From Escherichia phage RCIP0319, in the sequence record PV464738.1: a DNA stretch of 64,000 nucleotides; one strand, 5' to 3'. Of this stretch, positions 55,346-56,472 are shown piece by piece. A program made the translations under genes and the position numbers. Every line of letters begins with the position of its first letter. The stretch's first letter is position 1. The notes beneath the pieces were generated by a model. The model did no database searches. It saw only the letters and a program-made list of their open reading frames with translations, and was not told the origin of the DNA.

Positions 55346-55570
55346 CGACCAGCCAGCAGCGGCTAAGTCATTGATTTGCATAACAAGCGGCAAAAGGTAT
55401 GGATTTCTTTTATACGTATCAAACAGTACACCAAGCACCACGGTCCGCTATTCATTAAGCATTGTGATTTATGTACGTTTACAGCCAATTTGAACATCAA
55501 TCTGCACTTGAATATAATGTTCAATCATTGTATAATTCACACTATTAATTTGCACTATGGGATTTGCACT

Positions 55571-56044
55571 ATGAGTCAAGATTATGTAGCAATGCCTGAA
55601 GACTTTGAAGACCCGCGATTTGCAGAGCATAATCAGGCATTATTCGATGAGTTCATCGACCTTGTTATTCAGGGCCATGACATGCGCGCAGCTTTTGCAC
55701 TAGTATTTGGCATGGAGGTTGCGACCGATAACTACACTGGCCAGCGAATCCTCTGCACGCAACGCAATCCGTACTACAAGATGCGCTACAAAAAGCGTAT
55801 GGAAGAGATGCCATTGAAGGAATTGTGGAGCGTAAAGAGTTCCATCCACAATTTAGTGAAGCTTGTGTGTGATCCAGAAGTCGCGGCATCAGCCAAGCTT
55901 AATGCCATTCGTGAACTGAATATCATCTACGGCATCACAATGATTGATGAAAATGGCAATAGTAAAATGGGCCGTTCCATGGATGATTTTTACAAGGATT
56001 TTGGAGAGGCGGCCAAAGAAGGAGAGCAATTCTCCCGCCACTAG
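55571..56044 (+). CDS. hypothetical protein (possible DNA-binding protein) flanked by iterons
   Basis: ATG 55571 overlaps second iteron (track start 55376 lies in repeats); 157 aa; weak resemblance to helix-turn-helix N-termini. Confidence 0.35.
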   Translation: MSQDYVAMPEDFEDPRFAEHNQALFDEFIDLVIQGHDMRAAFALVFGMEVATDNYTGQRILCTQRNPYYKMRYKKRMEEMPLKELWSVKSSIHNLVKLVCDPEVAASAKLNAIRELNIIYGITMIDENGNSKMGRSMDDFYKDFGEAAKEGEQFSRH

Positions 56045-56061
56045 CCAATTTGCACTATAAA

Positions 56062-56099
56062 ATGGCCCTAGAACACATTTTCTCCACTTCTAGGGCCAT
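56062..56099. repeat. 12-bp perfect inverted repeat
   Basis: ATGGCCCTAGAA, 14-nt loop, TTCTAGGGCCAT; immediately after the 56044 stop and an iteron. Confidence 0.5.
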
Positions 56100-56472
56100 C
56101 GGTAATACGACGGGGAAGGTTGCAATCATAAACGCGTTAGAAAGTGTATTATTATAAGTCATCTTTTAGTCACTTTACGTAACAATTTACGACCCTCCGC
56201 CGTCCAGTCGAACGACTCCACCAGCAGATTTGCACTATAACCTAAGACGATGCGCCCTTTCTCGTTATCGACCCGCCAACAAGTCTCAAATAGCATTCGA
56301 TTTGCGCTATTAACTATCGCCGCAACGCGCGTTGGGTAAGCGCAATTTGCACTATGGTCGTAAAGGGATAAGGTGCGACCACTTCCGATGGAAAACATAG
56401 CGATGAGAATAAGCGTATTCATAAGCCACCAATTTGCACTATGAAAAGCGACCACGAAGGGCCGCCATTCGA

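Follow-up and report, generated by a model that had tools for sequence, protein, structure and literature searches.

How ring-shaped small terminases select viral DNA is a long-standing open problem. In phage lambda, the cosB site comprises R3, R2 and R1, the gpNu1 sites located between cosN and the Nu1 gene, and the pac site of P1 contains seven TGATCA/G hexamers bound by PacA. In SPP1, the direct repeats of pac extend across promoters, the ribosome-binding site and the start of the small terminase gene, terS, and the terminase represses its own synthesis. According to a review of the field, the TerS proteins of P22, Sf6, SF6/SPP1 and E217 bind their presumed sites only weakly, non-specifically or not detectably in vitro, and no DNA site is known for proteins of the E217 type. 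The present analysis deals with an array of short, strictly co-oriented repeats (iterons) that surrounds the terS gene of Escherichia phage RCIP0319 (sequence record PV464738.1). The stretch analyzed, called the window in what follows, is 64,000 nucleotides long, and about 4 kb of the genome lie beyond it. The window belongs to a Wifcevirus, an E. coli myovirus of the ECML-117/WFC/WFH group, which is distantly related to the Pseudomonas PB1-like phages.

Within the window, ATTTGCACTAT has seven matches with at most one mismatch, all of them on the plus strand. These 11-mers start at 55548, 55562, 56048, 56228, 56300, 56345 and 56432; six are exact, and that at 56300 (ATTTGCGCTAT) has one mismatch. 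Shuffled sequences gave a mean of 1.95 matches, and none of 100 shuffles reached seven. A sequence-only reading of the same DNA had described seven same-orientation copies of an 11-12-bp motif, one of them overlapping the ATG at 55571. The number, the common orientation (all in 55548-56442) and the overlap are borne out, and so is the motif, the complete unit of which is 12 nt long (RATTTGCACTAT); five copies rather than the four proposed were counted in 56045-56472, one being the one-mismatch copy. The genome-wide count that it had called for found no copy of ATTTGCACTAT in the 64-kb window outside 55548-56442. Only two families of clustered 9-mers, defined by at least four copies within 1.5 kb, occur in the whole window, namely this motif and TACGGATGATACG. 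A position weight matrix (PWM) derived from all copies adds weaker plus-strand sites at 55692, 55534 and 55499. The sites are, from left to right:

55499-55510, plus strand: weak iteron-like site AATCTGCACTTG (PWM score 9.3), overlapping the start of the -35 element of the second terS promoter
55534-55545, plus strand: weak iteron AATTCACACTAT (PWM score 11.4), on the -10/+1 region of the second promoter, 13 bp ahead of iteron 1
55547-55558, plus strand: iteron 1, AATTTGCACTAT, at about +4 to +15 of the second promoter
55561-55572, plus strand: iteron 2, GATTTGCACTAT, 14 bp past iteron 1, its final two bases being the AT of the terS ATG
55692-55703, plus strand: degenerate iteron CTTTTGCACTAG from the PWM scan, within terS at Ala-Leu codons
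56047-56058, plus strand: iteron 3, AATTTGCACTAT, 3 nt past the terS stop codon, overlapping the U-tract of a minus-strand terminator
56227-56238, plus strand: iteron 4, GATTTGCACTAT, immediately preceded by the Chi complement CCACCAGC (56218)
56299-56310, plus strand: iteron 5, GATTTGCGCTAT, the one-mismatch copy
56344-56355, plus strand: iteron 6, AATTTGCACTAT
56431-56442, plus strand: iteron 7, AATTTGCACTAT, between the start of an 87-aa gene and the terminator and stop codon of a 208-aa gene

The copies are spaced irregularly, by 14, 486, 180, 72, 45 and 87 bp, and the sequences that flank them are unrelated to one another. Being asymmetric and repeated only in direct orientation, the unit lacks the dyad symmetry expected of operators for dimeric regulators. 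Iteron 4 reads GATTCGCACTAT in five of ten Wifceviruses, and iteron 5 is exact (GCACTAT) in eight of nine relatives. No preferred helical phase of the copies was detected in the window, Kyle and PA1 (Rayleigh test, periods of 9.5-12 bp, P = 0.22-0.62). An Rfam scan of 54000-59500 at E <= 1 returned no match, and no prior description of the array was found in the literature on the motif and on Wifcevirus. When TTTGCACTAT-N(3-33)-TTTGCACTAT was sought in viral and genome collections, the matches beyond Wifceviruses fell in unrelated organisms at roughly the chance level, which makes that search uninformative. Three familiar kinds of site were compared with the motif by eye and set aside: a DnaA box, with seven of nine positions of a relaxed consensus and a worse fit in Pantoea phage Kyle; an IHF site; and a sigma-70 or phage promoter, the copies lying antisense inside genes and nowhere else in the genome.

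The array flanks and enters a gene whose product is homologous to a structurally characterized small terminase, and its leftmost sites coincide with the promoters of that gene:

55571-56044, plus strand: terS, small terminase of the E217 type, 157 aa, identified by phmmer against the PDB
55490-55536, plus strand: two overlapping near-consensus sigma-70 promoters, TTGAAC-17-TATAAT and TTGAAT-17-TATAAT, each with 10 of 12 consensus matches

The phmmer match is to 7uxe_A, 'Small terminase' (E = 1.1e-31, residues 3-147); 7UXE is the TerS decamer of Pseudomonas phage E217, and E217 TerS is about 39% identical to that of Wifcevirus. The orthologue in phage Mansfield is annotated as terminase small subunit in a record that cites HHpred similarity to SF6 TerS, and TerS homologues are present in 358 phage records. 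Among ten Wifceviruses, terS substitutions at codon positions 1:2:3 are distributed as 4:2:45, which served as a control for the reading frames considered below. By homology to the E217 decamer, Wifcevirus TerS is predicted to oligomerize into a ring, with helix-turn-helix domains at the N-termini of its subunits. In the same ten phages, the terS promoters have invariant -35 and -10 hexamers and vary in only three columns of the spacer. The site at 55499 overlaps the start of the second -35 element, and those at 55534, 55547 and 55561 extend over the -10/+1 region, positions +4 to +30 and the ATG. Near-consensus sigma-70 promoters precede terS in three genera: TTGAAT-17-TATAAT in the window, TTGACG-18-TATAAT in Kyle (sequence L005, 284-316) and TTGACT-17-TATAAT in MTx (L008, 314-342).

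The array also lies just inside a mapped genome end:

55211-58527, no strand assigned: direct terminal repeat (DTR), 3317 bp in the window

The ends of the WFH and Ro157lw records and the DTR determined by PhageTerm for Mansfield map to 55211 on the left and 58527 on the right. The exact copies of the motif span +337 to +1232 from the left end, and the first weak site lies at +289. A DTR of about 3.7 kb has been reported for Wifcevirus (PMC6563267, PMC6753283); that of the window measures 3317 bp rather than 3673-3701 bp because a segment of about 360-390 bp is missing. By comparison with WFH, WFC and Mansfield, this segment, which carries a minus-strand gene of 94-104 aa, is absent near 57100-57200.

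The sequence-only reading had offered three options for the repeats, namely iterons of a replication origin, a pac site bound by a small terminase, and operators of a phage regulator. The small-terminase option is the best supported, because of the TerS homology, the position of the site inside the left genome end, and the SPP1-like layout over promoter and ATG; operators are compatible with the copies at the terS promoters only, and little speaks for an origin. The small-terminase option also draws on the uniqueness and single orientation of the motif, on its persistence in Kylevirus and its imposition on coding DNA, on a packaging start close to terS in related phages, on iteron-like sites past the right DTR boundary, and on co-oriented repeats near terS in other TerS lineages, all described below. 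The array is thus tentatively interpreted, with a confidence just short of even, as a pac/cosB-like site for TerS recognition and autoregulation. It would consist of cis-acting, oriented protein-binding sites distributed over the left 1.2 kb of the DTR, with TerS as their most likely reader. In the TerS ring, the helix-turn-helix domains would all face one way, such that DNA wrapped around it, or adjacent rings on DNA, would meet direct repeats; in this proposal the strict co-orientation of the copies follows from the single rotational sense in which the ring presents its domains. Binding of TerS would mark the phage DNA for the large terminase, which would then cut at the fixed left boundary, 337 bp leftward, and packaging would proceed rightward through terS. 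With four sites placed on the promoters, the ribosome-binding site and the ATG, TerS might, as it accumulates, shut off its own early synthesis, as in SPP1.

The closest parallel is the pac region of SPP1 and SF6 (pacL-pacC-pacR, with boxes a, b and c and the TerS protein G1P), in which direct repeats also lie over tandem promoters, the ribosome-binding site and the 5' part of terS, and whose TerS, a ring with N-terminal helix-turn-helix domains, is structurally related to the present one. However, the repeats of SPP1 pac are packed closely on either side of the cut, whereas here the strong copies do not begin until 337 bp from it, extend over 0.9 kb and reach into convergent genes. Three short types of box are found in SPP1, as opposed to six or seven copies of one near-exact 12-bp unit here; SPP1 packages by the headful mechanism, while Wifcevirus has fixed ends with, in the window, a 3.3-kb DTR, and terL is not adjacent to terS. 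With lambda cosB the array shares its uniqueness in the genome and the order from the end to repeated TerS sites to terS, on the side packaged first. In cosB, by contrast, three sites of 16 bp that do not all point the same way, and an IHF site, are found no farther than about 120 bp from the nick; gpNu1, which binds as a dimer, has no sequence relationship to the present TerS, and lambda has cohesive ends and no DTR. P1 pac is similar in that a short motif, present seven times in or beside the gene for the small terminase, is needed as a full set; its hexamers, however, are split into two groups on either side of the cut, all in a span of 162 bp, they are subject to control by Dam methylation, and packaging is by headful.

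Rightward of terS, the array continues into genes of the opposite orientation:

56159-56422, minus strand: 87-aa gene with a hydrophobic N-terminus, with iterons 4-6 as S-A-N codons, identified by codon-position substitutions and by a homologue in Kyle
56062-56099, minus strand: terminator hairpin with a stem of 12-13 bp followed by a minus-strand T-run (-25.1 kcal/mol, z = -4.1)
56473-57099, minus strand: 208-aa gene, phrog_4730, the right-hand limit of the array in the window

The terminator serves the convergent minus-strand genes and is also annotated in WFH and WFC. The sequence-only reading had noted that a minus-strand open reading frame (ORF) at 56159-56455 repeatedly encodes S-A-N from the motif. 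That is so for four copies, whose spacings (72, 45 and 87 bp) are all multiples of three; it is the DNA motif, imposed on the coding sequence, that accounts for the fourfold S-A-N of the protein. The accompanying suggestion that 56159-56455 might be non-coding is refuted by the distribution of substitutions in the 87-aa ORF (4:5:24 at codon positions 1:2:3 in ten Wifceviruses) and by the homologue of its product in Kyle, KYLE_2 (31% identity over 70 aa, E = 4e-12). For comparison, substitutions in a neighboring 35-aa ORF are distributed as 4:6:5, and WFH, WFC and Mansfield annotate the 87-aa gene as a 264-nt coding sequence. The iteron motif is thus superimposed on coding DNA of both strands. 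The fact that four copies lie in one frame of a real gene could be taken to mean that the array is a functionless by-product of repeated peptide motifs or of local duplication. This is scarcely credible, as the copies occupy three genes on both strands as well as intergenic DNA and yet keep to one DNA strand throughout, and as their flanks are unrelated.

Searches of Pfam, NCBIfam and the PDB with the 208-aa, 87-aa and other DTR-encoded proteins found no family. The 208-aa protein retrieved only Wifcevirus copies, at least 92% identical among the best 120 of 229 matches, and no domains; its AlphaFold single-sequence model (pLDDT 38.7) is unusable.

The array is conserved in a second genus. Kylevirus is represented by the Pantoea phages Kyle and PA1, whose TerS is 43% identical to that of the window, and DNA similarity to the window in the array region is detectable over only about 85 bp of the 208-aa gene. 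In the N-terminal domain of TerS, a Q/R-R-N motif is common to the two genera with iterons, and E-x-N takes its place in the others. For GCACTAY, with an expectation of about 0.12 per kb per strand, 11 copies are found in the array zone of Kyle and 10 in that of PA1, all on the plus strand and running from within terS to the 3' end of the homologue of the 208-aa gene. The GCACTA core occurs 14 and 13 times, respectively, and the joint consensus is RATTYGCACTAY. Two copies stand at orthologous codons of the 87-aa protein in Kyle and in the window. A GCACTA of Kyle (L005, 477-482), as read by eye from the sequences and the TerS alignment, lies at Ala-Leu codons aligned with the degenerate CTTTTGCACTAG in terS of the window. 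A metagenomic Wifcevirus (L025) has gained an extra tandem pair on the plus strand of its 208-aa gene, 14 bp apart, which rewrites a linker of the 208-aa protein to DSANCVVQNG. The Kylevirus comparison shows selection at the level of the DNA. Since the same strand is kept across three genes of both orientations and the spacers between them, an artefact of peptide repeats or duplication is ruled out; the by-product explanation is also at odds with the retention of the array in a genus with almost no detectable DNA similarity.

The overlap of sites with the terS promoters can be read in another way, namely as operators or roadblocks for a phage regulator other than TerS, which would silence the convergent early units of the DTR (terS rightward, the 208-aa and 87-aa genes leftward) at the transition from early to late expression. 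In line with such a role, four sites lie over the -35, the -10 and the +1 to +30 region of the tandem terS promoters, copies 3 and 7 adjoin the two minus-strand terminators, and the DTR is rich in sigma-70-like promoters (23 against 9.6 expected). However, the overlap holds for the sites in 55499-55572 and not for the other five or six copies, and most copies are within coding DNA, far from promoters. The sites are also non-palindromic and strictly co-oriented, in which they differ from typical operators, and none is present at the terS promoter of Kyle. No conserved regulator gene was found in the DTR, and the gene annotated as 'transcriptional regulator' in phage F13, which encodes 69 aa, is absent from the window. 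A regulator other than TerS is considered a rather unlikely reader.

Iterons of a replication origin, bound by an initiator, with the AT-rich segment 55211-55300 as unwinding element, would likewise be direct repeats located partly in a gene, as in lambda ori. Some 250 bp separate that segment, with a GC fraction of about 0.31, from the array on its right, the cumulative GC skew has its maximum near 55-56 kb, and a primase gene is located just upstream of the terS region in Pbunavirus and Myosmarvirus. The skew maximum, however, coincides with a switch in gene orientation and with a G/T-rich spacer and is uninformative; in the GC-skew analysis that the sequence-only reading had called for, GC and AT skews mirror gene orientation, with no origin signal. 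In the origins of the lambda type, in gene O, and of the plasmid Rep type, direct repeats are also partly coding, but spacing, unit length and neighboring gene are different: here units of 11-12 bp are spaced by 14-486 bp over 0.9 kb, in place of a regular block of tandem iterons of about 20 bp (17-22 bp) each, and the gene within the array encodes a terminase rather than an initiator. The genes for a RepB-type primase and a VapE-type helicase (40982-45044) are 10-14 kb away. An origin at this site thus appears highly improbable.

Several observations weigh against TerS as the reader of the array. A distance of 337 bp separates the cut from its nearest strong copy, more than in lambda, SPP1 or P1, and the array is 0.9 kb long, irregularly spaced (14-486 bp) and unphased, whereas known pac and cosB sites are compact. 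E217 TerS displayed no appreciable DNA binding in vitro, and the DNA-binding domain of SF6 TerS ignored the box repeats of SPP1/SF6. With consensus sigma-70 promoters in front of its gene, TerS would be an early product of transcription by the host RNA polymerase, a stage at which packaging proteins are not usually made. In Kyle, the interval from the terS promoter to the ATG contains no copy, and autorepression is therefore not conserved. Finally, Pbunavirus and Myosmarvirus have homologous TerS proteins without the iteron motif.

What these related lineages have in common with Wifcevirus is the position at which packaging begins. The long reads of JG024, a Pbunavirus, have their starts at 59,376, which is 601 bp ahead of its terS gene. 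This base is also the first one in several Pbunavirus records (position 1 of BrSP1), and the JG024 pac start appears positionally homologous to the left end of the Wifcevirus DTR, although the former phage is reported to package by headful and the latter to have a DTR. Both the JG024 start and the Wifcevirus and Kylevirus left ends are followed, about 100-155 bp to the right, by CTTGCGGCA; in MTx, TGCGGCA is similarly placed. From the common position of starts, left ends and CTTGCGGCA, packaging is concluded to start just upstream of terS across the lineage. E217 and other Pbunavirus members thus resemble the window in their homologous TerS, in the distance of terS from terL, and in a start a few hundred bp upstream of terS with CTTGCGGCA to its right. 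They differ in that Pbunavirus genomes are reported to be circularly permuted and packaged by headful, and in that they have no ATTTGCACTAT array and five co-oriented GTAATTTGG around the cut instead (E217, L015 1586, 1753, 1918, 1926 and 2110).

Another motif near the left end bears on the interpretation of the array. In the window, [AT]GCGGC[AT]A occurs three times on the plus strand within 75 bp (55312, 55358 and 55386; +102 to +176), the densest such cluster present, and this motif or its relatives CTTGCGGCA, TGCGGCA and GAACTTGCGGC are found at 127 and 154 in Kyle (L005), 155 and 214 in MTx (L008), 111 and 229 in BrSP1 (L019), and 2580-2794 in a metagenomic lineage (L041). The short core has a high background frequency, but, being shared by four genera and nearer to the cut, this motif is a candidate for an alternative or additional terminase site, which also counts against the array as the recognition site. 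In favor of TerS as the reader, other TerS lineages have co-oriented repeats of their own near terS. The same metagenomic lineage has five co-oriented copies of GAACTTGCGGC upstream of the gene. In Myosmarvirus (L008, 968-1090; L017, 3028-3140), three co-oriented 22-bp repeats, AAAAAAATAAGCATGCTTTGTA, with the palindromic core AAGCATGCTT, lie directly downstream of terS; they occupy the place where Wifcevirus has its iterons. Salmonella phage PCSE1 (L018, 388-624) carries six AATATCG on the plus strand upstream of terS, four of them as AAATATCG.

Chi octamers are also concentrated at this end of the genome. Minus-strand Chi sites (CCACCAGC on the plus strand) form clusters in the left part of the DTR, where the opposite orientation is not represented: Kyle has nine in 2 kb (255-1972), PA1 seven (2148-3720), and the Myosmarviruses MTx and TropicalSun four (179-1276) and five (2987-3492), respectively. 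In this orientation, Chi is active toward RecBCD that comes in from the left end of the genome. In the window, a single Chi lies in the DTR, abutting iteron 4, and only three more occur in the rest of the 64 kb. Such clusters suggest end protection or Chi-stimulated formation of concatemers.

The iterons themselves might be polar signals of a Chi-like or KOPS-like kind, read from the left DNA end and serving in end protection, in concatemer-building recombination or in the orientation of a translocase. This agrees with the strict co-orientation that the copies of Wifcevirus, Kyle and PA1 show with respect to the genome end, and with the interleaving of the copies of Kyle and PA1 with seven to nine Chi octamers in the orientation that is RecBCD-active from the left end; in the window, the only Chi of the DTR abuts iteron 4. 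Nevertheless, the motif is confined to about 1 kb instead of being dispersed, its number shows no trade-off with that of Chi sites, and the 14-bp tandem pairs and the stacking over promoters resemble binding sites in double-stranded DNA. To our knowledge, no enzyme is known that reads the iteron sequence. The probability granted to this explanation is very small. A broader proposal retains TerS as the reader, in that early-made TerS would load as a train of rings on a polar 1-kb array shared with the clustered Chi sites. The array would then be more than a simple pac site, namely an organizing center of the genome end, setting the polarity of terminase translocation, helping to define both DTR boundaries, the right one being accompanied by iteron-like sites as well, and coupling end protection or recombination with packaging. 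This proposal is speculative and is itself rather improbable.

Further repeats are found near the boundaries of the DTR. Two iteron-like sites lie past the right one:

58551-58562, plus strand: iteron-like AATTTGCAGTAC, 24 bp beyond the right boundary of the DTR
58647-58658, plus strand: second iteron-like AATTTGCAGTAC, 120 bp beyond the right boundary

Both have a PWM score of 12.4 and are jointly the best of their kind outside the array, with two scattered sites elsewhere at 12.5-12.8. Each is part of a AAATTTGCAGTACACT (58551-58565 and 58647-58661), which has AATTTGCA and CACTA in common with the iteron. The counterpart of the first site in Kyle is CCAATTTCACAGTACACTAATCA (L005, about 3627-3650), about 25 bp beyond the right boundary of that phage. 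Inside the DTR, next to the same boundary, AATCATTAGCTTTCG is repeated four times with a 15-bp period (58398-58460), and CTAATCATTAG-like repeats occupy the equivalent place in Kyle.

On the left, a G/T-rich spacer (54830-55210, GC skew up to 0.64) separates a plus-strand terminator (54808-54826) from the DTR boundary; a 135-aa ORF listed in it is Trp-rich and probably not a gene. The second family of clustered repeats, TACGGATGATACG, has nine exact copies in just two clusters, at 1075-1334 and 55140-55332. The first, located in the spacer that precedes the head-gene module, contains six copies pointing both ways, while the second has three exact copies and one near copy that flank the left DTR boundary at 55211. 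About 70 bp around the copies are 77% similar between the two clusters.

Taken at the level of sequence comparison, the array thus appears to be a TerS-associated repeat site that is unusual for its length and strict polarity and for lying within a long DTR and across genes of both strands. It represents an unusually clean candidate for a site of this kind, with seven to nine co-oriented copies of a near-exact 12-bp motif around terS at a mapped end, occurrence in a second genus and de novo gain within genes. It makes sequence-specific recognition by TerS directly testable and, for a TerS family with no recognized site so far, is a well-defined candidate DNA code. If the array were indeed the organizing center of the genome end, it would be the first DNA code of high information content to be defined for a small terminase of the ring type. 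As these phages grow on E. coli and are kin of therapeutic Pseudomonas PB1-like phages, such knowledge would aid the engineering and rebooting of phages of this group and the prediction of their transduction potential.

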